Shown: one piece after another, positions 6,666 through 52,061 of the stretch | How positions within the stretch are numbered: the stretch's first letter is position 1 | Layout of the letters: each line of letters begins with the position of its first letter | Assembly (NCBI RefSeq): GCF_003991155.1 | Contig: NZ_CP031293.1 | Reading direction: 5' to 3' (one strand) | From: Escherichia coli | Lineage (GTDB): Bacteria > Pseudomonadota > Gammaproteobacteria > Enterobacterales > Enterobacteriaceae | DNA: 64,000 bases | Translations under genes and position numbers: made by a program | The notes under the pieces: generated by a model | The model's input: only the letters and a program-made list of their open reading frames with translations | Told to the model about the DNA's origin: nothing | The model's database searches: none

Positions 6666-7055
<390 letters not shown>

Positions 7056-11766: not shown

Positions 11767-12762
11767 TTATCGCTGCGCAATGTTGACTCTTGTCACAGGC
11801 GAACTCTGACGATTCTCCCATAGCACCGTTAATCCACGCTGTAAGGCAATAAAAATGAACAGCAAAATACCGATGGCGATTTTCGTCCACCAGGAACTCA
11901 GCGTGCCATCAAAGTTTATGTAAGTCTGAATCAGTCCCTGAATCGCCACGCCAAAAAGCGTCCCTAATACCGTTCCAACGCCACCACTCAAAAGCGTACC
12001 GCCAATTACCACTGAGGCGATAGCATCCAGTTCCACACCTACGCCCGCCAGTGCATATCCGGCCTGGGTATAAATCGAGAAGACAATCCCCGCCAGCGTT
12101 GCCAGTCCGGTGGAGAGCATATAAATGCGAATAGTGGTGCTGCGAGTGGAAATCCCCATCAGGTTTGCCGACGTTGCGTTGCCGCCAATGGCGTACACCT
12201 GATTACCAAAACGGGTACGATGCGCGAGGAATATGCCGATAACCACCACCGCCAGCATCAGCAGTCCCATCGCACTTAAGCGACCGCCGCCAGGGATTTT
12301 CCACGCAAGGCTTGAGAGCGTGTCATAAACAGGATGATTTATCGGGATCGACTCTTCTGAGATGAGATAGCTGACACCGCGCAAAAAGAACATCCCCGCA
12401 AGGGTAATGATAAACGCCGGGATCTTCAGCGCGTCGATCAGAAGCCCCATAAATGCGCCGAAGGCACAGCCCATCACCAACACCAGCGGAAACTCCAGCA
12501 GCGGCGAGAGGCCGAAATCGCCAATCACTTTTGCCAGAAACACGCCGGTAAAGGCGATCACCGAACCGACGGAGAGATCGATCCCACCGGAGAGGATCAC
12601 AAAGGTAATGCCAACGGCGATGATCCCAAGAAAGGCATTATCGGTCAGGATATTGCAGATCACTCTTGTGGAAGCAAAACCGGGAAACTGCGTCAGACAG
12701 TAGAGATAACCCAGCACAAAGACGCCGATAGTGATCATCAGCGGCAAGTTACGTTTTATCAC
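11767..12762 (-). CDS. yjfF: Galactofuranose ABC transporter permease (331 aa)
   Basis: Polytopic permease translation; ytfQRT-yjfF operon context. Confidence 0.9.
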   Translation of the reverse strand: MIKRNLPLMITIGVFVLGYLYCLTQFPGFASTRVICNILTDNAFLGIIAVGITFVILSGGIDLSVGSVIAFTGVFLAKVIGDFGLSPLLEFPLVLVMGCAFGAFMGLLIDALKIPAFIITLAGMFFLRGVSYLISEESIPINHPVYDTLSSLAWKIPGGGRLSAMGLLMLAVVVIGIFLAHRTRFGNQVYAIGGNATSANLMGISTRSTTIRIYMLSTGLATLAGIVFSIYTQAGYALAGVGVELDAIASVVIGGTLLSGGVGTVLGTLFGVAIQGLIQTYINFDGTLSSWWTKIAIGILLFIFIALQRGLTVLWENRQSSPVTRVNIAQR

Positions 12763-13774: not shown

Positions 13775-13784
13775 ACTGTTCTCC

Positions 13785-15287
13785 TTACGCCGCAATGGCG
13801 TTCATGATCGCCGGAACGGAAAGCTCTGCCAGCGGGATCTCCGCCACCTGTTTGCGATCGCGCATGATAATCACCCGATCGGCATAGCCCACCAGTTCTT
13901 CCAGTTCGGAGGAGATCACCAGCAGCGCCAGTCCATCGGCGCACAGCGTTTCAATCAGGCGGATGATCTCGGCGTGGGCACCAACATCAATGCCGCGGGT
14001 TGGCTCATCGAGGATCAGAAATTGCGGTCGGGTCAGTAGCCAACGTGAAAGCAACACTTTTTGCTGATTGCCGCCGGAGAGAAATTCAATCGGTTGTTCA
14101 GTTGAAGGTGTGCGAATGCCAAGCTGGCGGATAAAGCGTTCGGCAATTTCTTGCTGTTCTTTGCGGGAAATCGGTCGTAGCCAGCCGCGCTGGGCCTGGA
14201 GAGCGAGGATGATATTTTCCCGCACCGAGGCGGCAGCGATGATGCCATCGGTTTTCCTGTCTTCCGGGCAGAAGCCGATACCCAGTACCGAAGCCTGATG
14301 TGGCGATCGCAGGGTTTGCGGTTTGCCTTTGATCAGCGCCGTGCCGCTGTCAGCAGGTTTGATACCGAAGATCACTTCGGCGGTTTCGGTACGTCCTGAT
14401 CCCAGCAACCCTGCCAGGCCGACGATCTCGCCGGGGCGCACTTCGAGATCAAACGGTGCGATCGTTCCTTTTTTGCCGTAATTTTTGAACGCTGCAACGG
14501 GTTTGTCGCTCAACAATGTTCGCCCGGCACGCTGTAGCGCGTGAGTGTCCAGCTCGCGCCCCAGCATCATTTTTACTAGTTCGATCTGCGGTAGCTCGCG
14601 GGTTTCCCGACAGCCTACGAAACTGCCGTTGCGTAAGACGGTGATCCGATCGCTGACCTGATAGACCTGATCGAGAAAGTGAGTAACGAAGATCAGGCTG
14701 ACGCCGCGATCGCGCAACTGCCGCATCAGGCCAAACAGTAACTCTACTTCCTGAGTGTCGAGACTGGCAGTGGGTTCATCGAGGATCAGCACTTTGGCAG
14801 AGAGATCGATAGCCCGGCAAATGGCGACGATTTGCTGCATCGCCACTGAAAAGCGGTTGAGCGGTTCGCGCACGTCGAGGGAGAAACCGTAAGATGCCAT
14901 CAGTTCGGTGGCGCGCTTTTCCATCTCTTTACGGCGTAGAAGGCCGAAACGTTTGGGTTCGCGACCTATGAATAGATTATCAGCGACCGACATATTGGGT
15001 AGCAGGTTGACTTCCTGATAGACGGTGCCGATGCCGAGTTGTTGTGCGTGGGCGGTATTTTTCGGTGAGATTGCCTGGCCTTCCAGCCAGATGGTGCCGC
15101 GATCGGCGTGGTATACACCGGTTAAGGCTTTGATTAGCGTTGATTTTCCCGCCCCGTTTTCACCGAGCAGCGCCATAATTTCGCCGCGGCGCAGGCTGAA
15201 ATCAACGTTGTCTAACGCTTTGACGCCGGGGAAAAATTTACTTAATCCTTCGGTGCGGAGGATTTCCTGGTGTTGGTTAGTATTCAT
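13785..15287 (-). CDS. ytfR: Galactofuranose ABC transporter ATP-binding protein, duplicated ABC domains (500 aa)
   Basis: Translation from MNTNQHQEILRTEGLSKFF with two Walker A/LSGG motifs; RBS GGGGGAA upstream of ATG at 15287. Confidence 0.92.
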   Translation of the reverse strand: MNTNQHQEILRTEGLSKFFPGVKALDNVDFSLRRGEIMALLGENGAGKSTLIKALTGVYHADRGTIWLEGQAISPKNTAHAQQLGIGTVYQEVNLLPNMSVADNLFIGREPKRFGLLRRKEMEKRATELMASYGFSLDVREPLNRFSVAMQQIVAICRAIDLSAKVLILDEPTASLDTQEVELLFGLMRQLRDRGVSLIFVTHFLDQVYQVSDRITVLRNGSFVGCRETRELPQIELVKMMLGRELDTHALQRAGRTLLSDKPVAAFKNYGKKGTIAPFDLEVRPGEIVGLAGLLGSGRTETAEVIFGIKPADSGTALIKGKPQTLRSPHQASVLGIGFCPEDRKTDGIIAAASVRENIILALQAQRGWLRPISRKEQQEIAERFIRQLGIRTPSTEQPIEFLSGGNQQKVLLSRWLLTRPQFLILDEPTRGIDVGAHAEIIRLIETLCADGLALLVISSELEELVGYADRVIIMRDRKQVAEIPLAELSVPAIMNAIAA

Positions 15288-36380: not shown

Positions 36381-37019
36381 ATGCCCGGGCGCTTTGAACT
36401 AAAACCAACCCTGGAGAAAGTCTGGCACGCGCCGGACAATTTTCGCTTCATGGACCCGCTGCCGCCGATGCATCGTCGGGGGATCATTATTGCCGCCATT
36501 GTATTGGTAGTCGGATTTCTGCTTCCATCTGATGATACGCCCAACGCGCCAGTGGTGACGCGTGAAGCGCAGTTAGATATTCAGTCGCAATCACAACCAC
36601 CGACAGAAGAACAGCTGCGGGCGCAATTAGTCACGCCACAAAATGATCCTGATCAGGTGGCTCCGGTCGCTCCAGAACCAATACAGGAAGGCCAGCCAGA
36701 AGAGCAGCCGCAAACCACCCATACGCAACCATTCCAGCCAGATAGCGGAATTGATAATCAATGGCGCTCCTATCGTGTCGAACCCGGTAAAACGATGGCG
36801 CAGCTGTTCCGCGACCACGGACTGCCCGCTACCGATGTCTATGCCATGGCGCAGGTAGAAGGCGCGGGTAAGCCGCTGAGTAATTTGCAAAACGGGCAGA
36901 TGGTGAAAATCCGCCAGAACGCCAGCGGCGTGGTGACGGGCTTAACCATTGATACGGGGAATAATCAACAGGTCCTGTTTACCCGCCAGCCGGATGGCAG
37001 TTTTATTCGTGCGCGGTAG
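36381..37019 (+). CDS. ytfB: OapA/LysM-domain cell-division protein YtfB (212 aa)
   Basis: Translation from [29 protein letters not shown]...; GGAGG RBS before ATG at 36381. Confidence 0.9.
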
Positions 37020-37650
37020 ATGAAGGGTCAACCAAAAGCCAGCTAAGGATTGTCTCTTTGATGACCTTACGTCTGGCTTCCAGTGCCTGGGGTGAAACCA
37101 TACTGATGTGATAAACCAGGCCAAGCGTATGCTGGTTGATCAAATAATATCCCCCAAGCGCAGCAATATTAATATTCACCTGCAATGGGTCGATATCTGG
37201 CTTAAAAATATTGTGTTTCTTCCCTTCATCCAATAAGGATTCCATTAACTGCAAGTGCGCATGGTTAATTTCTAAAAGACGCTGTGACTTTGCATAATGC
37301 ACACCCTTACTTTGATTTTCACTATGCACAATTTTTAAAAACCAGGGATTAGAAATATAATAATCCCATGTAAAATCGATTATTTTCTCAATGGCTTTCT
37401 GTGGCGGAAGATCTGAGAAATCAAGGGCCTTTTCTTTTTGTCGAATATCGTTCCAGGTATATTCCAGTACTTCGATAAATAAATTTTCTTTATTACCAAA
37501 GTGGTGATAAACCGTCTGTTTACTGCACCCTGCTGCCTTGACAATATTATCGACTCTGGCCCCTTCGTAACCATATTCGGCAAATTCATTAACCGCGCAT
37601 AACAGCAGCTTTTCTTTCAGGCTCTGTACGTTGCTGGTATCAAGATACAT
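37003..37650 (-). CDS. TetR-family transcriptional regulator (215 aa), divergent from accessory operon
   Basis: N-terminal HTH signature ...[34 protein letters not shown]...; 3' end overlaps ytfB 3' end by 17 bp; AT-rich codon usage by eye. Confidence 0.85.
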
Positions 37651-37684
37651 AACGCTTCCCCACGACCTCTTCGTGGTGACTATC

Positions 37685-37746
37685 ATAACCTGATTTGATT
37701 TCAGCTTCAGAAAAAAGGGCAAAAACTTGTACTTTCATCAGGTTAT
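37685..37746. promoter_or_regulatory. Inverted repeat ATAACCTGAT ... ATCAGGTTAT in divergent TetR/operon intergenic region
   Basis: Read directly; 10-bp arms about 42 bp apart. Confidence 0.4.
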
Positions 37747-37773
37747 CAAATGTCCTGTGATCGCCATCGCATA

Positions 37774-37793
37774 TCAACCAACTAGATGGTTGA
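37774..37793. promoter_or_regulatory. Perfect palindrome TCAACCA-ACTAGA-TGGTTGA; candidate TetR operator about 70 bp upstream of first operon gene
   Basis: Read directly; 7-bp arms, 6-bp spacer, located in promoter region. Confidence 0.5.
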
Positions 37794-37862
37794 TCTTTTT
37801 ATCATCCAGTCGCAAGCTAATCATCACCAAGGAAACAAAATTCAAAAAAAGAGAGCTATTGT

Positions 37863-38654
37863 ATGAAATCCACTCGTCCTGTTGCCGTGATTACCGGAGC
37901 CGCTCGTGGTATTGGAAAGGGCTGTGCGCTGGAGCTTGCGCGTGGCGGATTTAATCTGCTGATTAATGATCGTCCGGATGCGGATAGCGTAGAAAAATTA
38001 CATGCCACACAACAAGAATGTCTGGCGGAAGGCGTGGAAGTGATTTGCTTCCCTGCTGATGTGGGCGATCTCTCCCTTCATGAAGAGATGCTCGACGCGG
38101 CGCAAAACCAGTGGGGACGTCTGGACTGTCTACTCAACAACGCAGGCATTTCAGTGAAAAAACGCGGTGACCTCCTCGACCTCGAACCAGACAGCTTCGA
38201 TCAAAACATTGCCATTAACACCCGCGCGCCGTTCTTCCTTGCTCAGGCATTCAGTAAGCGCTTACTGGCACAGCCGAAACCGGAAGCAGAACTGCCGCAC
38301 CGCTCGATTATTTTTGTCAGTTCCATCAACGCCATCATGCTGGCGATGAATCGCGGCGAATATACCATTGCCAAAACTGCCGTCTCCGCCGCAGCTCGTC
38401 TGTTTGCCGCTCGCCTTTGCAATGAACAAATTGGCGTTTATGAAGTGCGCCCTGGTCTCATCAAAACTGATATGACTATTCCGGCAACGGCTTATTACGA
38501 CGAACTGATTGCCAAAGGTCTGGTGCCGTGGGGACGTTGGGGTTATCCGGCTGATATTGCTTCCACTGTCCGCGCGATGGCGGAAGGTAAACTGATTTAC
38601 ACCTGCGGTCAGGCGGTTGCCATCGACGGCGGCTTAAGTATGCCGCGCTTCTGA
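37863..38654 (+). CDS. Short-chain dehydrogenase/reductase (SDR), 263 aa
   Basis: TGAARGIG Rossmann motif, NNAG, catalytic YxxxK (YTIAK) in translation. Confidence 0.85.
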   Translation: MKSTRPVAVITGAARGIGKGCALELARGGFNLLINDRPDADSVEKLHATQQECLAEGVEVICFPADVGDLSLHEEMLDAAQNQWGRLDCLLNNAGISVKKRGDLLDLEPDSFDQNIAINTRAPFFLAQAFSKRLLAQPKPEAELPHRSIIFVSSINAIMLAMNRGEYTIAKTAVSAAARLFAARLCNEQIGVYEVRPGLIKTDMTIPATAYYDELIAKGLVPWGRWGYPADIASTVRAMAEGKLIYTCGQAVAIDGGLSMPRF

Positions 38655-38663
38655 GGCTGAATC

Positions 38664-39506
38664 ATGAGAGATCTGTTACAACGCCCGGATTTATTCAGTA
38701 TCAATACCGCAACACTGGGCTATAAAACGCCGCTACCCGCCATTATTGATGCCTGCGCCGCACGCGGTATTGGCGCAATTGCCCCCTGGCGCAGGGAGTT
38801 GCAGGGTGAAGATCTCCAGCAAATCGCCCGCCAGCTTGCTGCCAGTAACATAAACGTTTCCGGTTTGTGCCGTAGCACCTACTACACCGCACCGACGCTG
38901 GCGGAGCGCAAACTGGCGATTGACGATAACCGCCGGGCGCTGGACGACGCCGCTGTACTGAACGCTGCCTGTTATATGCAGGTGGTTGGCGGTCTGCCAA
39001 TGGGAACAAAAGATCTGTACGAAGCGCGGGAACAGGTGAAACAAGGGATTCGCCAGTTGCTGCCACATTCGAAAGATGTCGGTGTGCCAATTGCACTGGA
39101 GCCACTGCACCCGATGACTGCTGCCGATCGTTCTTGTCTGTGCACGTTACGTCAGGCGCTGGACTGGTGTGATGAACTCGATCCCGATGGCGAATTTGGC
39201 CTCGGCGTGGCGGTAGATGTCTACCATGTCTGGTGGGATCCGGATCTCGCCAGTCAGATCCTGCGTGCCGGAAAACGCATCCTCGCGTTTCATGTTTCCG
39301 ACTGGTTAGTGCCGACCACCGATCTGGTCAATGACCGTGGAATGCCGGGAGATGGTGTCATCAATATTCCGTCAATTCGTCGGCTGGTTGAAAACGCCGG
39401 ATTTAATGGCGCTATTGAACTGGAAATATTCTCACCGTATTGGTGGCAGCAAGATATTGACAGCACACTGGATATTAGCGTCGATCGCATCGCGCATTAT
39501 TGCTAA
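38664..39506 (+). CDS. Xylose-isomerase-like TIM-barrel protein (sugar-phosphate isomerase/epimerase or dehydratase family), 280 aa
   Basis: Family-level resemblance of the translation to IolE/hydroxypyruvate-isomerase-type TIM barrels; 10-nt gap from SDR with GAGG RBS. Confidence 0.65.
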   Translation: MRDLLQRPDLFSINTATLGYKTPLPAIIDACAARGIGAIAPWRRELQGEDLQQIARQLAASNINVSGLCRSTYYTAPTLAERKLAIDDNRRALDDAAVLNAACYMQVVGGLPMGTKDLYEAREQVKQGIRQLLPHSKDVGVPIALEPLHPMTAADRSCLCTLRQALDWCDELDPDGEFGLGVAVDVYHVWWDPDLASQILRAGKRILAFHVSDWLVPTTDLVNDRGMPGDGVINIPSIRRLVENAGFNGAIELEIFSPYWWQQDIDSTLDISVDRIAHYC

Positions 39507-39515
39507 GGAATAATC

Positions 39516-40292
39516 ATGAGTGACCAACCCGTTCTGTTCAGCAGAGCGGCGGCTTCTTGCCGCCTGACATTGAACCGTGAAGATAAATGTCATGCTATTA
39601 ATGAAGAAATGATCGAATCTCTCGACCATTATTTAAATGAAATTGAAAATGACACGGCATTACGCTTAGTCGAATTAACGGCAACCGGCGATAAATTCTT
39701 TTGTGCGGGCGGCGATATTAAATCGTGGTCGGCCTATTCGCCATTAGATATGGGCAGAAAATGGATTAAACGCGGTAACGAGGTTTTTAATCGCCTGCGC
39801 AATTTACCCCAATTAACGGTTGCAAATCTCAACGGTCATACCATTGGCGGTGGGATTGAACTCGCCTTGTGCTGCGATATTCGTATTGCCCGCCCCGGCG
39901 CGAAATTCTCTAACCCGGAAGTGATGCTCGGCATGGTGCCTGGCTGGATGGGCATTGAACGCGTGCTTAATCAGGTTGGCCCGGTGGTCGGTCGCCAGAT
40001 GCTGATGCTGGGTAAACGCCTGACGGCGCAGGAAGCTCAGGCGGCGAATTTAATTGATGAAGTGGTAGAAAAAGAACAGGTGGAAAGCTGGATGGCGAAT
40101 CAGTTAGCGCAGCTGGAAAAATGCGGTCCGGTGGCGCTCGCACATATCAAGCAACTGATTCTGGCACTGGAAAATAAACATGCTGATTACCCGCACCAGT
40201 TACTGGCTGGATTAATGTCCGCCACTCAGGATTGCCAGCAGGCGACGCGCGCCTTTGCCGAAAAAAGTAGCGTGAGCTTCCAAAATCAATAA
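39516..40292 (+). CDS. Crotonase-fold enzyme (enoyl-CoA hydratase/isomerase family), 258 aa
   Basis: FCAGGDIK and GHTIGGGIELALCCDIRIA oxyanion-hole motifs in translation. Confidence 0.85.
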   Translation: MSDQPVLFSRAAASCRLTLNREDKCHAINEEMIESLDHYLNEIENDTALRLVELTATGDKFFCAGGDIKSWSAYSPLDMGRKWIKRGNEVFNRLRNLPQLTVANLNGHTIGGGIELALCCDIRIARPGAKFSNPEVMLGMVPGWMGIERVLNQVGPVVGRQMLMLGKRLTAQEAQAANLIDEVVEKEQVESWMANQLAQLEKCGPVALAHIKQLILALENKHADYPHQLLAGLMSATQDCQQATRAFAEKSSVSFQNQ

Positions 40293-40301
40293 GGAAATTG
40301 T

Positions 40302-41843
40302 ATGCGTAAGATAACAACCACCGAGACACTGGCGGCGCAAATTCAGGACGGCGCAACCATTGCCATTAGCGGTAATGGCGGCGGAATGGTGGAAGCGGAC
40401 CATATTCTGGCTGCTATTGAAGCGCGTTTCCTGCAAACCGGACACCCGCGCGATCTGACATTAATCCACTCGCTGGGCATTGGCGATCGCGACTGCAAAG
40501 GCACTAACCGCTTCGCTCATGCAGATATGCTCAAACGCATCATTGCCGGGCACTTTACCTGGTCGCCCAAAATGCAGGCGCTGGTAAAAAATAACACGAT
40601 TGAAGCCTACTGCTTTCCTGGTGGCGTGATTCAGGCACTGCTACGGGAGATCGGCGCCGGACGTCCGGGGCTTTTTACCCACGTTGGGCTGGGATCGTTT
40701 GTTGATCCACGCAATGGCGGCGGTAAGTCGAATGAATGCACGACCGACGACCTGGTAGAACTGATTGAAATCGATGGTGAAACCAAACTTCGTTATCGCC
40801 CTTTCAAAGTGGATTACGCGATTTTGCGTGGCACTTATGCCGATCCACGAGGCAACGTCAGCCTCGAAGAAGAGGCGATTGATATGGATAGCTATTCGAT
40901 GGCGCTGGCAGCACACAACAGCGGCGGCAAAGTGTTCGTACAGGTACGCGATGTGCTGGAAGCTGGCGCGATTGAACCACGCCGGGTCAAATTACCGGGC
41001 ATTCTGGTTGATGGCATCGTTGAACACCGCGAACAACCGCAAACCTATCTTGGCGGTTACGACCTGACCATTAGCGGTCAACATCGCCGTCTGAGTTCTA
41101 ACGACGCTATTGAACTGGTTAGTCATCCAGTACGCCGCCTGATTGCCCGTCGGGCAGCACGCGAACTGGTGGCTGGCGCTTCAACCAACTTTGGCTTTGG
41201 TATTCCTGGCGGTATTCCAGGCGTAGCGCTGCGCGAAGGCGTTCCTTACCAAAGTTTATGGCTGAGCGTCGAGCAAGGTGTACATAACGGCATGATGCTG
41301 GATGATGCGTTCTTCGGCTGCGCCCGCAACGCCGACGCCATTATTCCATCACTCGATCAATTTGAGTTCTACAGTGGCGGAGGGATCGATATCACCTTCC
41401 TCGGCATGGGAGAGATGGATCAGTACGGTAACGTCAACGTCTCCCATCTCAATGGCAATCTGATTGGCCCCGGCGGATTTCTCGAAATTGCGCAAAACGC
41501 CCGTAAAGTGGTGTTCTGCGGCACGTTCGACGCCAAAGGTAGCAAGATCGATGTAACGCCAGATGGCTTGCATATCGCCCAGTCAGGTCAAATCCCTAAA
41601 CTGGTTACCCAGGTGGAAAAAATCACTTTTAGCGCCGCCTACGCACAGCAAAGCGGTCAGGAAGTGTTGTATATCACTGAACGTGCAGTATTCCAGTTAA
41701 CGGCAGAAGGCGTTGAATTAATTGAAATCGCACCGGGTGTGGAGATTGAGCGCGACATTCTGCCGTATATGGCTTTCCGTCCAATTATCAAGCACCCACG
41801 CCTGATGGAAAGTAGCCTGTTTACGCCGATGGAGGATGCATGA
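40302..41843 (+). CDS. Fused alpha/beta family I CoA-transferase (acyl-CoA:acetate/3-ketoacid CoA-transferase, YdiF-like), 513 aa
   Basis: Translation parallels remembered E. coli YdiF along its length (e.g. ITERAVF.L...G..LIEIAPGV..E.DIL near C-terminus). Confidence 0.8.
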   Translation: MRKITTTETLAAQIQDGATIAISGNGGGMVEADHILAAIEARFLQTGHPRDLTLIHSLGIGDRDCKGTNRFAHADMLKRIIAGHFTWSPKMQALVKNNTIEAYCFPGGVIQALLREIGAGRPGLFTHVGLGSFVDPRNGGGKSNECTTDDLVELIEIDGETKLRYRPFKVDYAILRGTYADPRGNVSLEEEAIDMDSYSMALAAHNSGGKVFVQVRDVLEAGAIEPRRVKLPGILVDGIVEHREQPQTYLGGYDLTISGQHRRLSSNDAIELVSHPVRRLIARRAARELVAGASTNFGFGIPGGIPGVALREGVPYQSLWLSVEQGVHNGMMLDDAFFGCARNADAIIPSLDQFEFYSGGGIDITFLGMGEMDQYGNVNVSHLNGNLIGPGGFLEIAQNARKVVFCGTFDAKGSKIDVTPDGLHIAQSGQIPKLVTQVEKITFSAAYAQQSGQEVLYITERAVFQLTAEGVELIEIAPGVEIERDILPYMAFRPIIKHPRLMESSLFTPMEDA

Positions 41844-43921
41844 GCCAGCTTGATGACACCCTCCTTGATGCGCTGACACACGTCACTTTCCCAAAGGGTT
41901 TTGTGTCAGCAGAGCCAGCGTCAATTGTCACGGTTGAAGATGTCGATTACCCGATCTGGCAAGTTGATGCGCTAGTCGTTGGTAGCGGCGCAGCAGGATT
42001 ACGTGCGGCAGTTGAACTTAAACGCCGCCAGCAAAATGTGCTGATCGCCACCGCCGGGTTATATATGGGGACATCGGCATGTTCTGGCTCTGATAAACAG
42101 ACGCTGTTTACCGCCGCTACCGCGGGCAACGGCGATAACTTCGCCAAACTGGCGGAAGCACTGGCGAGCGGTGGGGCGATGGATCATGACACCGCTTATG
42201 TCGAAGCGGTAGGTTCTCTGCACACTCTTGGCGGGTTGCAATATCTTGGTCTGGAATTACCGGAAGATCGCTATGGCGCGATTCTTCGTTATCAAACCGA
42301 CCATGACGAAGCCGGGCGTGCAACCTCGTGTGGGCCGCGTACCTCAAGGTTAATGGTGAAAGTGCTGTTGGAAGAAGTACAGCGCCTCGCCATTCCAGTG
42401 TTGACCAGTGCAACAGTGATTAAACTGCTGCATCAGCGTGACGAAAACGGCGAAGACCGTGTGGCGGGGGCAATCCTCGCGACCGGTCATCGCGCCCTTA
42501 ACCCATGGGGGCTGGCAATTGTGACTGCGCCCAATGTGGTACTGGCAACAGGAGGGCCTGGCGAGCTTTATCGCGACAGTGTGTACCCACACAAATGTTT
42601 TGGCTCGCTGGGGCTGGCGCTGGAGGAAGGCCTGACACTAACTAATCTGACCGAAAGCCAGTTTGGTATAGGCACGCCGCGCAGCACGTTTCCGTGGAAT
42701 TTGTCCGGCACCTATGTGCAGGTGATCCCATATATCTATTCCGTGGATGCTGAGGGTAACGAGTATAACTTCCTCGCGGATTACTATCGCACCACCCAGG
42801 AGCTGGCTTCAAACATCTTCCGTAAAGGCTATCAGTGGCCGTTCCACGCCACGCGGGTAATGGATTTTGGCTCCAGCTTGTTAGATATGGCGGTGGCGCA
42901 AGAGCAGCAATCAGGGCGTCAGGTATTTATGGATTTCAATCGTAATCCTGTAGCGGTGCCTGGTGATTTGCCCTTCTCATTAGATCGACTGGACGACGAC
43001 GTTCGCGCGTATCTGGAAAATAACGACGCTCTGGCACCATCGCCCATCGAACGACTGCAACGAATGAATCCGCTGTCTATCTCGCTGTATAAGATGCACG
43101 GTTACGATCTCACCACGCAGCCATTGCAGTTTGCCATGAATAATCAGCACATGAATGGCGGCATTGAAGTCGATATCTGGGGACAAACATCTCTGCCCGG
43201 TTGTTTTGCAGTGGGGGAAGTTGCTGGCACACACGGCGTCACCCGACCTGGCGGCGCGGCGTTGAATGCCGGGCAGGTTTTTGCTGTTCGTCTGGCGCGC
43301 TTTATTGGTTGCACGCAAAAGCGGAATATTGATGGAGATATTGCACAGCTGGCAGCTCCGGCACTGGCTTCTATAAGAGAGATCATTACTCAGGCGCACG
43401 ATAACGGGACCGGGATGCCGTTGTCGATTGTGAGAGAAAAAATTCAGGCACGAATGTCTGACTATGCGGGATTTATTTGCCATGCCGATAAAGTTCGACG
43501 TGCCACTCGTGATGCCCTGCTATTGAGTGAATTTGTCCAACAGCATGGATTGGCAATCAAACATGTGGGCGAAGTTGCCGAGCTGTTTATGTGGCGGCAT
43601 ATGGCACTGACTTCTGCCGCCGTATTAACGCAATTGACGCATTATATTGACGCAGGTGGTGGTAGCCGGGGAGCACGTATTATTCTCGACAGTGATGGAA
43701 ATTCTATTCCGCAAACACGAAATGGTTTTTGTGATGCCTGGCGCTTTCGTTCAGAGCGTACTGAGGATAAAAAAGATAAACTACTTATTCATTATTGCAA
43801 CGGTATCTTTCACGTCAGAGAAACACCTGTTCGTGAGTTTCCTATTATCCGAGGTATTTGGTTTGAAAAAAACTGGCCTGGTTTTCTTAATGGGACAATT
43901 TACCAGCCACAGGATGAATGA
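41840..43921 (+). CDS. FAD-dependent oxidoreductase of the fumarate reductase/succinate dehydrogenase/L-aspartate oxidase flavoprotein family with long C-terminal extension, 693 aa
   Basis: N-terminal DALVVGSGAAGLRAAVE dinucleotide fold, TGGPGELY, and C-terminal GGIEVD...GCFAVGEVAGT-HG..R.GG.AL motif; ATGA overlap with upstream gene and GGAGG RBS. Confidence 0.75.
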   Translation: MSQLDDTLLDALTHVTFPKGFVSAEPASIVTVEDVDYPIWQVDALVVGSGAAGLRAAVELKRRQQNVLIATAGLYMGTSACSGSDKQTLFTAATAGNGDNFAKLAEALASGGAMDHDTAYVEAVGSLHTLGGLQYLGLELPEDRYGAILRYQTDHDEAGRATSCGPRTSRLMVKVLLEEVQRLAIPVLTSATVIKLLHQRDENGEDRVAGAILATGHRALNPWGLAIVTAPNVVLATGGPGELYRDSVYPHKCFGSLGLALEEGLTLTNLTESQFGIGTPRSTFPWNLSGTYVQVIPYIYSVDAEGNEYNFLADYYRTTQELASNIFRKGYQWPFHATRVMDFGSSLLDMAVAQEQQSGRQVFMDFNRNPVAVPGDLPFSLDRLDDDVRAYLENNDALAPSPIERLQRMNPLSISLYKMHGYDLTTQPLQFAMNNQHMNGGIEVDIWGQTSLPGCFAVGEVAGTHGVTRPGGAALNAGQVFAVRLARFIGCTQKRNIDGDIAQLAAPALASIREIITQAHDNGTGMPLSIVREKIQARMSDYAGFICHADKVRRATRDALLLSEFVQQHGLAIKHVGEVAELFMWRHMALTSAAVLTQLTHYIDAGGGSRGARIILDSDGNSIPQTRNGFCDAWRFRSERTEDKKDKLLIHYCNGIFHVRETPVREFPIIRGIWFEKNWPGFLNGTIYQPQDE

Positions 43922-43941
43922 TATTGCAAAGGTTAATCACT

Positions 43942-44418
43942 ATGCGAAATATAATTAGATCTATTAATGCTCTACTTGCAGCATTGAACATTACCATTTT
44001 GGCGATCATCGTGGCATGTGTGACGTGGCAGGTGGCTGCACGATTTATATTTACTAGTCCCAGTATTTTTACAGATGAACTCAGCCGTTTGCTCTTTATT
44101 TGTCTTGGACTTTTTGGTGGGGCATACACCGCAGGGCAAAACCGGCATCTGGCGATTGACCTGATACCTATGATGCTGAAAGGAAAAGCCCGACGTCATT
44201 TATTTTTGTGTATTCAGATTATCGTTATTATCTTCGCTACCATCATTATGGTATATGGTGGTGGGCTATTAACGATGGATACATTCGATTCAGGTCAGAC
44301 CTCGCCCGCTTTAGGCTGGCAAATGGGATATATCTATATGAGCATCCCGATGAGTGGTGTACTTATTATTATATACACCATAGATATGGTTTTAACCGAA
44401 CTTAAACAACCACTCTAA
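43942..44418 (+). CDS. TRAP transporter small permease (DctQ family); alternative start 43918 overlapping upstream stop
   Basis: Short hydrophobic 4-TM-type translation MRNIIRSINALLAALNITILAIIVACVTWQ...; gene order Q-M-P. Confidence 0.8.
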   Translation: MRNIIRSINALLAALNITILAIIVACVTWQVAARFIFTSPSIFTDELSRLLFICLGLFGGAYTAGQNRHLAIDLIPMMLKGKARRHLFLCIQIIVIIFATIIMVYGGGLLTMDTFDSGQTSPALGWQMGYIYMSIPMSGVLIIIYTIDMVLTELKQPL

Positions 44419-44460
44419 AGATAACAAACAACAACCAACCATAGTAGGAATGGAGAAATT

Positions 44461-45762
44461 ATGGATTACTGGTTACCGATTATTGTGTTATTTGGTGCCT
44501 TCTTTTTTATGTTGGCATTAGGTGTACCTATTGTTTATGCCATTGGTTTATCGACACTGGCATCAATTTCCACACAACTCGATTTCAACTCAGCATTGAG
44601 TGTGGTTTCCCAAAAGTTAGCCTCCGGGTTAGATAGTTTTACGTTGTTGGCAATCCCATTTTTTATCTTGTCTGGCAACATTATGAATCATGGAGGAATA
44701 GCGCGACGATTAATCAACTTTGCCCGTATTCTCGGCGGTCGTCTGCCAGGCTCACTTGCCCACTGTAATATTCTCGCCAATATGCTGTTCGGGGCAATTT
44801 CTGGTTCAGCCGTGGCTTCGGCGGCTGCGATGGGCGGCGTCATGCATCCGCAACAGGTTAAAGAGGGCTACGACCCGGCATTCAGTACTGCGGTTAACGT
44901 TGCCTCTGCCCCGACGGGTTTGCTTATTCCACCAAGTAATACGTTAATCGTCTATTCACTGGTCAGTGGTGGTACTTCTATTGCCGCACTGTTTCTGGCG
45001 GGTTATGTTCCGGGAATTTTGCTGGGTCTGGCACTGATGGTAATAGCCGGTATTATCGCGGTACGTCGCGGTTATCCAAAGCCAGAACGCCCGACTTTAC
45101 GCCAGGCTGGCGTTGCGATATGGATGGCTATCCCCAGTATTTTCCTGATTATTTTAATTATGGGGGGTGTATTAAGTGGTATTTTTACCCCGACAGAGGC
45201 CTCCGCAATTGCAGTAATTTATACCCTTTTCCTTGCACTGGTTCTTTATCGTGAAATCTCAGTTAAAGATTTACCTAAAATATTTCTGGAATCCGTTATT
45301 ACCACTGCAATTGTCTTGTTATTAATTGGTTCTTCGATGGGAATGTCATGGGCGATGTCAAACGCTGACGTTCCCTTCCTGATTCTCGATTTGCTTAACA
45401 CTATTTCTGACAACCCAATAATAATCCTGCTTATTATCAATATTATCCTGTTGATTATCGGCACTTTTATGGATATGACACCGGCGGTACTGATTTTTAC
45501 GCCGATATTTTTACCGGTTGTCACCGAACTGGGCATGGACCCGATTCACTTTGGTATTGTCATGGTACTGAACATGTGTATCGGTATTTGTACTCCGCCT
45601 GTAGGCAGTGTGTTATTTGTCGGTTGTAGTGTATCTAAATTACCGATTAATAAAATTATCAAACCTATGCTGCCATTTTATGCCGTGATGGTATTGGTGC
45701 TGGCAATGGTGACCTATATTCCGCAAATCAGTATGGCATTGCCAAGAGCACTGGGTTACTGA
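44461..45762 (+). CDS. TRAP transporter large permease (DctM family), 433 aa
   Basis: Polytopic translation MDYWLPIIVLFGAFFFMLALGVPIVYAIGL... typical of DctM. Confidence 0.85.
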   Translation: MDYWLPIIVLFGAFFFMLALGVPIVYAIGLSTLASISTQLDFNSALSVVSQKLASGLDSFTLLAIPFFILSGNIMNHGGIARRLINFARILGGRLPGSLAHCNILANMLFGAISGSAVASAAAMGGVMHPQQVKEGYDPAFSTAVNVASAPTGLLIPPSNTLIVYSLVSGGTSIAALFLAGYVPGILLGLALMVIAGIIAVRRGYPKPERPTLRQAGVAIWMAIPSIFLIILIMGGVLSGIFTPTEASAIAVIYTLFLALVLYREISVKDLPKIFLESVITTAIVLLLIGSSMGMSWAMSNADVPFLILDLLNTISDNPIIILLIINIILLIIGTFMDMTPAVLIFTPIFLPVVTELGMDPIHFGIVMVLNMCIGICTPPVGSVLFVGCSVSKLPINKIIKPMLPFYAVMVLVLAMVTYIPQISMALPRALGY

Positions 45763-45814
45763 TGCGCATTCACTGGCGGCACCTGCCGCCATATTTATTA
45801 GAAAAGGAACATCT

Positions 45815-46786
45815 ATGAAAATAAAAGTATCCGCTGGCATTATCGGTGCTGTTCTTATGTTATCCGCAAGCCAGTCCTGGGCAGTGACATTAAAACTGAG
45901 TCATAATCAGGATAAGTCTCATCCTGTTCATAAAGCGATGGAGTTCTTTGCGAAAAAGAGCAAAGAGTACTCTAACGGTGATATTACTATTCGTATTTAT
46001 CCAAATGGAACATTGGGTACTCAACGAGAAACAATGGAGCTGATTCGTTCTGGCGCTATTCCACTGGTAAAAACCAACGCGGCAGAAATGGAAGCATTTG
46101 AAAATTCCTATAAATTATTTAGCCTGCCTTATTTGTTCCGCGATCGTGATCATTATTATCAGGTCATGCAGGGCGATATCGGGAGAAAAATCCTCGACTC
46201 AACGAAAAGCAAAGGTTATTTCGGGCTGACTTTTTATGATGGAGGCGCCCGCAGTTTCTACGGCAATAAACCAGTACTGAAACCAGACGATCTCAAAGGC
46301 ATGAAAGTCCGTGTCCAGCCAAGTCCTGGCGCAGTTGAAATGATCAAAGTCATGGGCGGTAACCCGACGCCACTGGATTACGGCGAGTTGTATACAGCCT
46401 TACAGCAGGGTGTGGTCGATATGGCAGAAAACAGCGTGATGGCGCTGACCACCATGCGTCACGGTGAAGTGGCAAAATCCTTCAGCCTTGACGAACACAC
46501 TATGGTTCCCGATGTGGTTCTGATGAGCAATGCTGCGTTTGATAAACTTAGCCCGGAAAATCAGGCAGTTATATTAAAAGCAGCTAAAGAATCAATGAGC
46601 TACATGAAAGACTTGTGGAGCGAGGAAGAGAAACAAGAATTTGCAAAACTGGATAAAATGGGCGTGAAAGTCTACCAGGTAGATAAAGCTCCGTTTATCG
46701 AGAAAGTACAGCCAATGTACGCAAACTTCGCTAAGGACAACCCAGCCCTTGCCCCAATGCTGGCTGATATTCAGGCAGCTAAGTAA
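45815..46786 (+). CDS. TRAP transporter periplasmic substrate-binding protein (DctP family), 323 aa
   Basis: Signal peptide MKIKVSAGIIGAVLMLSASQSWA then DctP-like SBP translation; AAAGGA RBS. Confidence 0.85.
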   Translation: MKIKVSAGIIGAVLMLSASQSWAVTLKLSHNQDKSHPVHKAMEFFAKKSKEYSNGDITIRIYPNGTLGTQRETMELIRSGAIPLVKTNAAEMEAFENSYKLFSLPYLFRDRDHYYQVMQGDIGRKILDSTKSKGYFGLTFYDGGARSFYGNKPVLKPDDLKGMKVRVQPSPGAVEMIKVMGGNPTPLDYGELYTALQQGVVDMAENSVMALTTMRHGEVAKSFSLDEHTMVPDVVLMSNAAFDKLSPENQAVILKAAKESMSYMKDLWSEEEKQEFAKLDKMGVKVYQVDKAPFIEKVQPMYANFAKDNPALAPMLADIQAAK

Positions 46787-46849
46787 TTATCTTCGTAGGG
46801 CTGCTTATTGTGGCCCTTATCGATATCTGCAAGTGCTCGCTACAAAAGC

Positions 46850-46877
46850 AAAACGCCGACCAATGGTCGGCGTTTTT
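46850..46877. terminator. Bidirectional rho-independent terminator (ACGCCGACC-AATG-GTCGGCGT flanked by A-run and T-run) between dctP-like gene and rplI
   Basis: Perfect 9-bp stem with flanking A/T tracts on both sides. Confidence 0.8.
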
Positions 46878-46897
46878 ACGTCTCGTTGAATAACGAA

Positions 46898-47359
<462 letters not shown>

Positions 47360-47388: not shown

Positions 47389-47935
<547 letters not shown>

Positions 47936-47941
47936 CAGAAA

Positions 47942-48355
<414 letters not shown>

Positions 48356-48663
48356 TTATTCAGCCTCCTGTCTGGGTCAGCCGAATCCCGGGGAGGCAAG
48401 GAACGTGTTAAAGGTCGGCTGAAAAATGACGCGTTATAGTACTGACATACCCCGCTAAACTCAAGGGCAGAGCCGAAATAAATCTCCCCTTTCGCAAATA
48501 ACCTCTAAACCGCTGATTTGGAGTTCATCACACTTCATCATGGTGTTTTTTTGAACAACTGCATCAGAAATGGTCACCATCAACTTCTTTATCATTGATT
48601 AAAATTAAATCAGAAGATCATCACAGAGGAGAGCACACAAAGTCAGCCGTCGAGGAGGTATCT

Positions 48664-48939
48664 ATGTTCAGTCGTGTTTTAGCCCTTCTGGCTGTGCTTT
48701 TGCTAAGTGCAAATACATGGGCAGCCATTGAAATTAATAACCACCAGGCCAGAAATATGGACGATGTGCAAAGCTTAGGCGTGATTTATATCAACCATAA
48801 CTTCGCCACTGAAAGTGAAGCACGTCAGGCATTAAATGAAGAGACAGATGCGCAGGGCGCAACGTACTACCACGTGATTCTGATGCGGGAACCGGGAAGT
48901 AACGGCAATATGCACGCCAGCGCGGATATTTATCGCTAG
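48664..48939 (+). CDS. yjfY: DUF1471 (YdgH/BhsA/McbA-like) small periplasmic protein (91 aa)
   Basis: Translation from MFSRVLALLAVLLLSANTWAAIEINN...; GAGGAGG RBS before ATG at 48664. Confidence 0.85.
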   Translation: MFSRVLALLAVLLLSANTWAAIEINNHQARNMDDVQSLGVIYINHNFATESEARQALNEETDAQGATYYHVILMREPGSNGNMHASADIYR

Positions 48940-48978
48940 CACCAGGTATAACCAACGAAACATTGCCATAGTTTGCTT

Positions 48979-49004
48979 TGCCCCCTTCGCAGGGGGCTTT
49001 TTTT
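48979..49004. terminator. Rho-independent terminator (GCCCCC-TTCGCA-GGGGGC-TTTTTTT)
   Basis: Read directly after yjfY; A-run on far side suggests it may also serve convergent ulaF. Confidence 0.8.
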
Positions 49005-49067
49005 GAAAAACGGCTGCGGAATTAGACCAGTTATCTCCCGAAGAAGGAAATTTCCGCAGCGCGTGTT

Positions 49068-49754
49068 TTACTTCTGCCCGTAATAAGCGTTGGGACCATG
49101 CTTACGCATGAAGTGTTTATTCATAAGATAGCTGTCGATGTGATTCAGTTGCGGGTTTATACTGCGCGCAATCCACGCCATTTTCGCCACTTCTTCCATC
49201 ACCACCGCGTTATGCACCGCATCGTGGGCATCTTTCCCCCAGGCAAACGGCCCGTGCTGATACACCACAATTCCCGGCGTATGCAGCGGTTCAGCGCCAC
49301 CCAGCGTTTCGATAATCACTTTGCCGGTGTTCAGTTCATACTCGCCCTGCACCTCTTCTTCGCTTAACCCACGCGTACACGGGATGTCGCCAAAGAAGTA
49401 GTCGGCGTGCGTGGTGCCTAACGCCGGGATCGCCAGCCCCGCCTGCGCCCATGCGGTGGCATGAGTGGAGTGGGTATGGACAATGCCGCCAAGCGACGGG
49501 TAACGACGGTAGAGTTCGAGATGCGTCGCAGTATCGGAAGACGGGCGATACGCCCCTTCCACCACCTTGCCGCTCATATCAACCACCACCATATCGTCTG
49601 CTTTCATGGTTTCGTAGGCGACGCCGCTGGGCTTGATCACCACCAGCCCGCGTTCGCGGTCAATGGCGCTGACGTTGCCCCAGGTAAAGGTCACCAGCCC
49701 GTAGCGCGGCAGATCCATGTTGGCTTCAAACACCTGCTGTTTTAGCTTTTGCAT
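49068..49754 (-). CDS. ulaF: L-ribulose-5-phosphate 4-epimerase (228 aa)
   Basis: Translation from [29 protein letters not shown]...; class II aldolase fold. Confidence 0.93.
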
Positions 49755-50608
49755 TATGCCGCCTCCACCATGCCTGCTTTGGCCATGCGCGCTTTCACCC
49801 AATCACGCGCTTTCGCCACTTCTGCCGCCGGGTCTTCCGCCGTTTCGCTCCACATCTCAATCAGGTACGGCCCGCAATAGCCACTCTGCTTGAGCGTTTC
49901 AAAGCAACGTTCGAAATCCACTACGCCTTCGCCAAACGGCACATTTTTGAAGACGCCTGGTTTGGTGTCTTTCACATGCACCGCGACGATATGCCCAATT
50001 CCGGCCTGCAATTCCATCTGCACGTCGTTGTCCCACGCCGACAGGTTGCCGATATCCGGGTAGAGCTGGAACCACGGGTTGTTGAGATAGTGCGCGTAGC
50101 CCAGCGCCTTGCTGATGGAGTTCATCAACGGATAATCCATGATCTCCATCGCCAGCGTCACCTGCGCACGGCTTGCCATCTCAACGCTCTCTTTCAGGCC
50201 GTCACGGAAACGACGACGCGTTTCGTTATTGGCTTCCTGATAATAAACGTCATAGCCCGCCAGCTGGATCACGCGAATACCAACGTCCTGGGCGAACTGG
50301 ATAGCTTTATGCATAATCTCCAGCCCCTGCGCCCGTACCGCGTCATCTTCGCTGCCCAGCGGGAAACGACGATGAGCAGAAAGGCACATGGAGGGCACGC
50401 GCACGCCGGTTTCAACAATCGCATTCACCAGCGCCAGACGCTGCTCGCGGCTCCAGTCGAGGCGCGACAGGCGATCGTCCGTTTCATCTACCGACATCTC
50501 GACAAAATCGAAGCCTAACGTTTTTGCCAGTTGCAGCCGTTCCAGCCAGCACTCCCCGGCGGGGAGCGCTTTTTCATAGATGCCAAGCGGGATTTGTTTG
50601 GACAACAT
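49754..50608 (-). CDS. ulaE: L-ribulose-5-phosphate 3-epimerase (284 aa)
   Basis: Translation [42 protein letters not shown]... Confidence 0.93.
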
Positions 50609-50617
50609 ATCCGCTCC

Positions 50618-51268
50618 TTAACCCCACAGTTCGGCGATGGAACGTTTGAACTGACGTGCGGCTTCCACCGGAGAAGCGGCATCACGGATACTACGGCCCG
50701 CGATAAAGACGTGAATCGGAATGCCTTTGAACAGCGGCAGATCTTCCAGCGCCAGGCCACCAGTGACGGTCACTTTGAAGCCCATATCGGAAAGACGTTT
50801 GATCGCGGTAATGTCCGCTTCGCCCCACGCTACGCCTGCGGCCTGTGCGTCACGGCTGCGGTGATAAACCACCTGCTGAATGCCTGCGTCGCGCCACTGC
50901 TGCGCCTGTTCCCAGGTCCAGTAACCGGTCAGTTCGATCTGCACGTCGCCGTTAAACTCTTTTGCCACGTCCAGCGCACCTTTGGCGGTGTTGATATCCG
51001 CACAGCAAATCACGGTCACCCAGTCAGCGTTGGCTTCGAAGCACATACGAGAAAGGATTTTGCCCGCATCGGCAATTTTGGCGTCTGCCAGTACGATTTT
51101 GTGCGGGTAAAGCGCTTTCAGGTCACGAACCGCACGCACGCCTTCGCCCACGCACAGAATGGTGCCCACTTCAATAATGTCGACTTCTTCGGCAATCAGG
51201 CGAGTGGTTTCGTAGGCGCTATCCATAGTCTGGTTGTCCAGCGCGACTTGCAACATCGGTAATGACAT
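50618..51268 (-). CDS. ulaD: 3-keto-L-gulonate-6-phosphate decarboxylase (216 aa)
   Basis: Translation from [36 protein letters not shown]...; ATG at 51268. Confidence 0.93.
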
Positions 51269-51281
51269 CTTCAATTCCTTC

Positions 51282-51746
51282 TTAAGCTGCCGCGTTGGTG
51301 CGGTCAATGAGATCCAGTACTTCCTGCTCGGTACGGCAGGCACGTAAACGGTCGAAATTCTCTTCATCTTCAAACAGGTTGACGATCTGCATGATGCCCA
51401 CTTCCTGGTGGGTGTTGGCATCAACCGCCGCCATAGTGATGAGGATATCCACCGGGTCGTTATCTTCGTGGTTGAACTCCAGCGGCTTTTTCAGCGTCAC
51501 CAGCGCAAAACCGGTTTTCTTAACACCCTCTTCCGGGCGACCGTGCGGCATTGCCAGGCCTGGTGCGAGCACAAAGTACGGACCGTGCTGTTCAACCGCA
51601 TCCAGAATCGCCTGGTAGTAACGCGGCTCGACAACATCCGCCGCCACCAGCAGGTCAACGCCGATTTTCACTGCGTCCTGCCATGTCTCAGCTTCAGCCT
51701 GCAGACGGATAGATTTATTCTCCGCCAGCGAATCACGTAATTTCAT
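51282..51746 (-). CDS. ulaC: Ascorbate-specific PTS EIIA (154 aa)
   Basis: Translation [29 protein letters not shown]... Confidence 0.93.
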
Positions 51747-51755
51747 AGCGCGCCC

Positions 51756-52061
51756 TTACTTCACGTCCTGCGGGAAATGCGCTTTGATCACTTCCAGCAG
51801 TTTCGGGCCAAAGTCAGCAGGAGAGAGCATGTTGCGCACGCCAACCACATATTTGTTGCCGGTCACGGTGATTTCGCCCGCAATGTGCGTAGAAGCGATG
51901 ATGATATCCGCGCCGCTCAACTCGCTTTTGTATTCGCCAACCGCGCAGCTGTTTACCGTGTGGTCAATGTTCGACTGGGTTAAAAACTGGTCCACTTTCA
52001 TCTTCATGATCATGGAACTGCCTTGTCCGTTGCCACACACAGCCAGAATACGTACGGTCAT
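51756..52061 (-). CDS. ulaB: Ascorbate-specific PTS EIIB (101 aa)
   Basis: Translation [27 protein letters not shown]... Confidence 0.93.

Follow-up and report, generated by a model that had tools for sequence, protein, structure and literature searches.

A nine-gene island between ytfB and rplI

We analysed a 64,000-nucleotide stretch of Escherichia coli DNA (RefSeq assembly GCF_003991155.1, contig NZ_CP031293.1; hereafter the window), which carries a nine-gene island between ytfB and rplI, and focused on the flavoprotein of the FrdA/SdhA/NadB superfamily that this island encodes. A divergent TetR gene is followed by genes for a short-chain dehydrogenase/reductase (SDR), a TIM barrel of the AP_endonuc_2 type, a crotonase-fold hydratase, a YdiF-type CoA-transferase and the flavoprotein, and then by dctQ, dctM and dctP of a tripartite ATP-independent periplasmic (TRAP) transporter. 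The flavoprotein gene is an uninterrupted open reading frame (ORF) of 693 codons at 41840-43921 on the plus strand, identical in position to the RefSeq CDS WP_000080365.1 ('FAD-dependent oxidoreductase') of matching E. coli chromosomes. Several complete E. coli genomes match bases 37000-47000 of the window at 100% identity, and this full stretch is present in 1447 of the 5426 complete genomes of the species, or about a quarter.

Successive enzyme genes upstream of the flavoprotein are separated by gaps of 9 nt, and the CoA-transferase and flavoprotein genes overlap by 4 nt (ATGA), with the TGA of the former at 41841-43 falling on the ATG of the latter at 41840-42; a GGAGGA lies just 5' of this start codon, at 41831-36. 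At the other end of the gene, an ATG at 43918 overlaps the flavoprotein stop codon in the same manner (ATGA), whilst the RefSeq start of dctQ is 20 nt downstream, at 43942. The original prediction had the flavoprotein translationally coupled to both the CoA-transferase and the TRAP genes. The ATGA overlap bears this out for the CoA-transferase; coupling to the TRAP genes is possible but not certain, since it depends on which of the two dctQ start codons is used.

In some E. coli assemblies this junction looks different: ORFs P0003 (1078 aa) and P0035 (973 aa) join CoA_trans to FAD_binding_2 and match 80-100% of the flavoprotein, as does P0080 (1043 aa), for which only the CoA_trans domain is listed. 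All three resemble CoA-transferase-flavoprotein fusions at the ATGA junction, and could be either real frameshift fusions or assembly errors.

Annotation of the island revealed no iron-sulfur or membrane-anchor gene. For a wider view we called and clustered ORFs in 84 related loci, 77 of which hold a member of the flavoprotein family, and a phmmer search of the 1114 neighbour ORFs with E. coli FrdB found an FrdB-like gene in none of these 77. The flavoprotein sequence has no signal peptide, and its eight cysteines are scattered, with no cysteine cluster. The protein is cytoplasmic and stand-alone, in agreement with the original prediction on the latter point.

The flavoprotein has the four canonical domains of the SdhA/FrdA/NadB clade

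Domain annotation agreed with the proposed superfamily: Pfam FAD_binding_2 (PF00890) spans residues 43-475 (E 9e-28), and G48, G50 and the GEVAGTHG...RPGG region are invariant across 101 full-length relatives. By sequence, the nearest solved proteins are NadB, FrdA and SdhA, and the closest curated NCBIfam families are TfrA, NadB and SdhA/FrdA, yet every score lies far under its cut-off. The top match, TfrA (NF004900; E 7e-36), reaches 124 bits against a cut-off of 718, the NadB families give 100-106 bits against cut-offs of 453-639, and none of the TfrA, NadB, SdhA, FrdA and AprA whole-protein cut-offs is passed.

An AlphaFold2 (AF2) model built from the alignment of the 101 family members has a mean pLDDT of 95. 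In Foldseek, the entire model aligned with SdhA/FrdA chains (target TM-score 0.70-0.81 over 660-700 columns), and the superposition on 1kf6_A, 1nek_A and 1zoy_A covers the whole chain with the same order of four domains. Comparison of the family profile with E. coli FrdA by hhalign paired query residues 38-622 with FrdA 2-542 (probability 99.5), a span that takes in the ESRG-type motif closing the helical domain and in which the helical region, query 476-622, pairs with FrdA 398-542. Profile matches extend further, to query 642 (FrdA 561 of 602) and 664 (avian SdhA 601 of 621), and four long helices occupy residues 501-604 of the model. What had been described as a C-terminal extension of about 200 aa with no counterpart in FrdA/SdhA is, by this evidence, the ordinary pair of helical and C-terminal domains. 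Pfam reports no Succ_DH_flav_C on the protein, missing it because the sequence is divergent, and finds no additional cofactor domain. The flavoprotein is 91 residues longer than FrdA: an N-terminal extension contributes 36 aa and the enlarged capping domain about 38 aa, the remainder coming from a few small insertions and about 10 aa at the tail. Taken together, these data place the flavoprotein in the SdhA/FrdA/NadB clade, with all four canonical domains present (Table 1).

Identity to SdhA/FrdA is nonetheless low, at about 16-19% in the fold superpositions and 23% over the hhalign columns with FrdA. The Rossmann GxGxxG, the C-terminal FAD motif, the ESRG-type motif and Arg390 of FrdA (Arg469 here) are held in common, whereas the flavoprotein differs from FrdA/SdhA in its missing covalent-FAD histidine and RGEGG motif, its own capping motifs, its N-terminal extension and the absence of linked iron-sulfur or membrane subunits. 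NadB (1chu, 1knp, 5kxj; profile E 4e-32) is likewise a stand-alone, soluble protein with non-covalent FAD and a helical C-terminal domain, but is only about 540 aa long and serves NAD biosynthesis rather than a catabolic context; TfrA, for its part, works with TfrB, and the flavoprotein has no such partner. Urocanate reductase (UrdA), KstD and TcuA, which had been put forward as analogues, are more distant than NadB, FrdA, SdhA and TfrA. UrdA, flavocytochrome c3 and the cinnamate, itaconate and shikimate reductases of gut bacteria form a different clade without the helical domain, usually with FMN_bind or cytochrome domains or export signals, and matches to this clade were weak and partial: 6t85, the urocanate reductase, gave E 5e-7 over the last FAD motif only, and 1qo8 gave 2e-15 over the N-terminal FAD part. 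KstD was absent among profile matches with E <= 1e-6.

The dicarboxylate site is remodelled around a single conserved arginine

We mapped the active site by combining the alignment of the 101 relatives with the FrdA and NadB profile alignments, and give FrdA numbering for reference. The covalent-FAD histidine (FrdA His44) is absent: the FrdA RSHT aligns to a gap, and the family motif GTSxxxGSDKQT contains no histidine, so that FAD is predicted to be non-covalently bound. FrdA His232 (QYHPT) is replaced by a family-invariant Gly276 (QFGxxS), the proton-shuttle Arg287 by an invariant Ser345 (GSSxxD), and His355 by an invariant Gln436 that is followed by an invariant His437; Thr244 pairs with Gln294 in a low-confidence part of the alignment. 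The RGEGG motif is missing from the flavoprotein, and the catalytic His244, Arg290 and His351 of NadB are not kept either. FrdA Arg390 is retained as Arg469 and is the sole residue of the dicarboxylate site to be kept. The capping domain has invariants of its own, namely K329-G-Y-x-W-P in the KGYQWPF stretch, S345-S346, D349, R405 and N410. Since the dicarboxylate/aspartate site has been dismantled whilst the flavin site and one carboxylate clamp persist, these alignments suggest that the remodelled site serves a new substrate, rather than reflecting decay.

It is accordingly highly improbable that the flavoprotein is an ordinary SdhA/FrdA/NadB paralogue acting on succinate/fumarate or aspartate with an FrdB or SdhB borrowed from elsewhere. 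Its fold and domain order are those of SdhA/FrdA, and frdB and sdhB are indeed encoded elsewhere in E. coli, but such an enzyme is hard to reconcile with the missing covalent-FAD histidine, the invariant Gly, Ser and Gln in place of His232, Arg287 and His355, the scores far under all curated cut-offs, the lack of any FrdB-like neighbour and an operon context that is catabolic and TetR-controlled. The original prediction had itself named, as the outcome that would count against it, a standard succinate dehydrogenase C-terminus with conserved fumarate-binding residues and an iron-sulfur partner; the C-terminus does consist of standard domains, but the fumarate-binding residues are not conserved and no iron-sulfur partner is linked.

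A large family with no functional name

An exhaustive HMMER scan revealed 424 clusters (50% identity) at E <= 1e-30, most of them 600-700 aa long and aligning end to end, and a genome scan found relatives in at least 594 bacterial and archaeal species, many family members coming from strict anaerobes. AFDB50 neighbours with TM >= 0.85 include proteins from Enterocloster, Halanaerobium, Treponema, Coriobacterium and an Asgard archaeon, and bear only the labels 'FAD-binding protein' or 'oxidoreductase'. No NCBIfam family covers these flavoproteins, neither AFDB50 nor NCBIfam supplies a functional name for any member, and our literature search found no published characterisation of the island proteins or of the family; three distant representatives had metagenomic contexts that were, for the most part, not long enough to be informative. 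The family is thus large, unnamed and uncharacterised, and the flavoprotein fails the defining features of each named member of the clade (covalent histidine, catalytic residues, iron-sulfur partner, cut-offs).

Accompanying enzymes, regulatory elements and transporters

The remaining features of the island are listed in Table 1, together with the domains of the flavoprotein. In the CoA-transferase, an SVEQG motif lies at residue 322 and a GPGGF motif at 389. The hydratase has GGGIE at 111 and NPEVM at 133, which we take from the crotonase family to be its two catalytic glutamate motifs, so that both are present. For the TIM barrel, the closest structures are 3qc0 and 3ju2 (51% identity) and 7vpf (41%), all uncharacterised 'putative sugar isomerases' that give it no named function. 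In the SDR, Asp35 ends beta2 (LINDR), which suggests a preference for NAD; the enzyme is probably NAD-dependent. The palindrome between the TetR gene and the operon, about 70 nt 5' of the SDR start codon and flagged as a hairpin by the terminator scan, is a candidate TetR operator.

Table 1 Features of the island other than the flavoprotein gene (window positions), and domains of the flavoprotein (residues).
Feature	Position	Strand	Evidence or remark
TetR-family regulator, divergent	37003-37650 (RefSeq start; longer ORF to 37722)	-	Annotation, NCBIfam
22-bp palindrome ATCAACCAACT/AGATGGTTGAT	37773-37794		Divergent promoter region between TetR gene and operon
SDR, NCBIfam PRK12745, 263 aa	37863-38654	+	NCBIfam; neighbour counts
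AP_endonuc_2 (xylose-isomerase-like) TIM barrel, 280 aa	38664-39506	+	PDB matches; co-occurrence with flavoprotein family
Crotonase-fold enoyl-CoA hydratase, 258 aa	39516-40292	+	NCBIfam; motifs
YdiF/FadX-type fused class I CoA-transferase, 513 aa	40302-41843	+	PDB 2ahu YdiF, E 5e-114; NCBIfam FadX, 1e-114, below cut-off
dctQ	43918 or 43942 to 44418	+	TRAP gene
dctM	44461-45762	+	TRAP gene
dctP	45815-46786	+	TRAP gene; product related to hexuronate-binding proteins
N-terminal extension	residues 1-37 (approximate)		
FAD-binding domain	residues 38-275 and 421-475 (approximate)		
Enlarged, divergent capping domain	residues 276-420 (approximate)		
Helical domain	residues 476-604 (approximate)		
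C-terminal beta-rich domain	residues 605-693 (approximate)		

DctP matches the galacturonate- or glucuronate-bound TRAP binding proteins 4ovr, 4x8r, 4n8y and 4n15 (E 1e-67 to 1e-72), with which it shares the carboxylate- and hydroxyl-binding residues Arg146, Arg166 and Asn206. The ligands of 4N8Y and 4X8R are given in PMC11668362, and those of 4N91 and 4MHF in PMC7660916. In Klebsiella oxytoca and Salmonella enterica (L088, L089; 12127-14394), the same block of TetR, SDR, TIM barrel, enoyl-CoA hydratase, CoA-transferase and flavoprotein genes occupies the same ytfB-rplI site, with the order of hydratase, CoA-transferase and flavoprotein kept, and the TRAP genes are replaced by a major facilitator superfamily (MFS) transporter of the anion:cation symporter family (TIGR00893, 1e-94) and an EamA gene. 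The TRAP genes of the E. coli island also have a GC content of 41-45%, against 50-55% for the enzyme genes; together with the different transporter at the same site in Klebsiella and Salmonella, this contrast suggests a transporter swap. An organic anion is what the TRAP and MFS transporters alike suggest as the imported compound, and a sugar acid would be the simplest case.

The pseudogene ytfA of E. coli K-12 (L087:3195-3596) corresponds to the last ~400 nt of the island TetR gene, being near-identical from alignment column 318 onward, and yjfZ occupies the place of the remaining island. This remnant indicates that the operon was once present in K-12 and has since been lost.

Two further hairpins were observed in the transporter part of the island: a strong palindromic one, AAAACGCCGACCATTGGTCGGCGTTTT, at 46850-46876 between dctP and the convergent rplI, which could terminate transcription both ways, and a smaller GC-rich one at 45774-45791, between dctM and dctP. 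The ula (L-ascorbate) operon (ulaF to ulaA, minus strand; window 47900-52000) lies a few kb away and includes an AP_endonuc_2 TIM barrel, UlaE; this closeness is probably coincidental, because K-12 has the same arrangement without the island.

Relatives of the flavoprotein lie mainly among sugar-type genes

All neighbour counts given here are lower bounds, as many of the 77 loci are truncated contigs. The PRK12745-type SDR is the commonest neighbour of the family (32 of 77 loci) and is often directly adjacent; KdgK-like kinases were found in 18 loci, Eda-like genes in 15 and the TIM barrel in nine. Genes for Old Yellow Enzyme (OYE)/Fe-S flavoenzymes adjoin the flavoprotein in 15 loci. Loci from Rhizobium, Devosia and Rhodobacteraceae, 15 in number and with flavoproteins 52-57% identical to that of E. 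coli, have an LgdA-like Gfo/Idh/MocA gene directly upstream, whose product matches levoglucosan dehydrogenase over its full length (8.5e-92, under the cut-off); these loci also carry two GMC oxidoreductases, a LacI regulator and a sugar ATP-binding cassette (ABC) transporter, and many add a KdgK-like kinase and some an Eda-like aldolase. A different Gfo/Idh/MocA gene occurs in seven loci (from Pseudescherichia, Mangrovibacter, a betaproteobacterium, Lentisphaeria, Opitutia and a planctomycete), together with the SDR and the same TIM barrel as in the E. coli island. Finally, a cassette of Planctomycetes/Phycisphaerae (L055, L059, L068, L069, L075; ~5000-14000) adjoins uvrA and comprises an OYE/Fe-S/NAD(P)H reductase of about 890 aa, the SDR, an Eda-like aldolase, sometimes a BNR/Asp-box protein, the flavoprotein, a gene resembling 2-keto-3-deoxygluconate (KDG) kinase, and MtnA. 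In L066 and L070, the cassette is flanked by genes assigned to GH28 by motif reading and by a sodium:solute symporter.

These neighbourhoods bear on the suggestion that the flavoprotein sits where an acyl-CoA dehydrogenase (ACAD) would be expected. If it did replace an ACAD, the YdiF-type transferase would convert an imported acid to its CoA ester, which the flavoprotein would desaturate (or reduce as the enoyl-CoA); hydration by the crotonase and oxidation by the SDR would follow, in a cycle resembling beta-oxidation. The E. coli island is suggestive in this regard, as it encodes the CoA-transferase, a hydratase with both glutamates and the SDR, yet no ACAD; the transferase and flavoprotein genes overlap, and the gene order is conserved in Klebsiella and Salmonella. 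Flavoprotein, CoA-transferase and hydratase genes are also contiguous in a Clostridia metagenome-assembled genome (MAG; L080), and L065 and L013 have the flavoprotein gene in the midst of CoA genes. However, a CoA-transferase and hydratase accompany the flavoprotein in only six of the 77 loci (Escherichia, a betaproteobacterium, a Desulfobacterales MAG and the Clostridia MAG), leaving 71 without. Two of the six, L013 and L065, hold genuine ACADs of their own, with an electron-transfer flavoprotein in L013, so that the flavoprotein is not an ACAD substitute there. Relatives as close as 52-59% identity adjoin the SDR, the TIM barrel, Gfo/Idh/MocA or LgdA-like dehydrogenases, a KdgK-like kinase and sugar transporters, CoA genes being absent in most cases, and the pairing of SDR and TIM barrel is common to such clusters. 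The island also contains no thiolase, and Arg469, as the carboxylate clamp of FrdA and NadB, argues for a free carboxylate as against a CoA ester. We therefore regard replacement of an ACAD as rather unlikely.

The frequent linkage to KdgK-like and Eda-like genes, which use 2-keto-3-deoxy acids, could instead mean that the flavoprotein is a dehydrogenase or oxidase in the manner of NadB, taking hydride from an alpha carbon that bears an O or N substituent, be it a hydroxyl, a ring or ether oxygen or an amine, to yield a 2-oxo acid (such as a 2-keto-3-deoxy acid of the KDG type) for a kinase and aldolase or for the CoA enzymes. NadB is among the closest sequence relatives and resembles the flavoprotein in its predicted mode of FAD binding. 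This is nevertheless unlikely, given that the catalytic residues of NadB are not conserved, and that members from strict anaerobes and adjacent NAD(P)H-linked OYE/Fe-S enzymes fit a reductase better than an oxidase.

The same linkage invites comparison with the KduI/KduD/KdgK/Eda route, in which an isomerase and an SDR produce KDG for a kinase and an aldolase; similar genes lie beside the family members of Planctomycetes and alpha-proteobacteria, although no island protein is homologous to KduI. Flavin-dependent hydratases exist, and a redox-neutral flavoenzyme could catalyse (de)hydration or isomerisation beside the carboxylate, for instance as a uronate or aldonate dehydratase giving a 4-deoxy-5-keto or 2-keto-3-deoxy acid, with the TIM barrel and SDR acting like KduI and KduD. 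The E. coli island encodes no electron-transfer partner, the proton-shuttle arginine is lost, and an SDR with an isomerase-like TIM barrel (or a cupin, in L065 and L080), a KdgK-like kinase and an Eda-like aldolase does resemble this module. We consider such an enzyme quite improbable all the same, because conservation of the FAD-binding motifs and of Arg469 is complete, just as it is in relatives that are redox-active, and the OYE/Fe-S reductases adjacent in 15 loci suggest real electron flow.

A possible role in the breakdown of a sugar-acid-like carboxylate

We tentatively propose that the flavoprotein works on a free carboxylate resembling a sugar acid, either as an ene-reductase or as a desaturase, and does not stand in for an ACAD; we give this reading somewhat less than an even chance. 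A free monocarboxylate would be bound through Arg469, and hydride would move between flavin N5 and the carbon beta to the carboxylate, so that a C=C bond is reduced or formed. The substrate would be an intermediate derived from an imported sugar-acid-like compound, of the hexuronate type or a related polyhydroxylated ring carboxylate, from which the NAD-dependent SDR would make a ketone and on which the TIM barrel would then act as an isomerase or dehydratase. This would match a familiar order of chemistry, in which a hydroxyl is oxidised before an isomerisation or elimination. Acting on a ring acid, these two enzymes would give a 4-oxo-2-enoate, the most economical candidate substrate; as this is in effect fumarate with a ketone in place of one carboxylate, it would explain why a single carboxylate clamp has survived. 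In Escherichia, Klebsiella and Salmonella, the YdiF-type CoA-transferase and then the enoyl-CoA hydratase would process the product as a CoA ester, whilst in other lineages a pair of KDG-kinase-like and Eda-like enzymes may take the downstream role. The NAD(P)H-linked OYE/Fe-S genes beside the flavoprotein in 15 loci would fit the reductase direction.

Both halves of this proposal have precedents. Shikimate, itaconate and cinnamates all have their enoate reduced by flavin reductases of the superfamily (bioRxiv 10.1101/2022.12.26.521950), so that these enzymes, along with UrdA and flavocytochrome c3, provide a functional analogy for C=C reduction in unusual acids of many kinds. Klebsiella, in turn, is known to break down a sugar acid at the CoA level: the 2-deoxyribonate acyl-CoA route of K. 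michiganensis handles a polyhydroxy acid as its CoA ester in an enterobacterium, through a cluster that has no FrdA-like flavoprotein (PMC6365646). We considered whether that cluster might be the island itself and rejected this, as it occupies another locus and encodes a CoA-synthetase, a thiolase, a glycerate kinase and a lactonase (PMC6365646).

Several observations weigh against the proposed role. The family has no characterised member, and the 4-oxo-2-enoate is a product of chemical reasoning rather than a result. The tight ATGA overlap with the CoA-transferase gene is compatible with a CoA-ester substrate, as is the recurrence of flavoprotein, CoA-transferase and hydratase genes in the Clostridia MAG, the Desulfobacterales MAG and the betaproteobacterium. 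An island without a kinase, aldolase or thiolase leaves the downstream route in E. coli unexplained. The transporters of related clusters also vary, with a PcaK-like aromatic-acid MFS transporter in Brenneria and a LIV-type ABC binding protein in the betaproteobacterium, so that the substrate class may be hydroaromatic or may depend on the lineage. We considered a quinate/shikimate route in this connection, in which 3-dehydroshikimate would be the 4-oxo-2-enoate; it is neither supported nor excluded, and draws on a TIM-barrel fold like that of 3-dehydroshikimate dehydratase (5hmq, rank 13 among the TIM-barrel matches), the PcaK-like transporter of Brenneria and the known shikimate-reducing flavin reductases.

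A broader form of the proposal is possible but doubtful: the family as a whole would catalyse an undescribed flavin step in the breakdown of hexuronate-like compounds or cyclitol carboxylates, either a dehydration or the reduction or formation, in a ring-derived 4-oxo-2-enoate, of the C=C bond beside the carboxylate. For E. coli, Klebsiella and Salmonella, the product of this step would enter a CoA-dependent sugar-acid pathway, one since lost from K-12.

There is no sign here of a new kind of system; the interest lies in a large orphan family, a clearly remodelled active site and a tractable E. coli operon. Being soluble and having no encoded partner subunits, the flavoprotein should be easy to express, and the TetR repressor with its candidate operator offers a direct route to the inducer. 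If the proposed role is correct, the succinate dehydrogenase scaffold would have been re-used for carbohydrate-acid chemistry in a widespread orphan enzyme family, and about a quarter of complete E. coli genomes, in addition to Klebsiella and Salmonella, would carry an accessory catabolic operon of which K-12 keeps only the ytfA fragment. Such an operon could matter in the gut, for niche use of an acid of plant, host or microbial origin.

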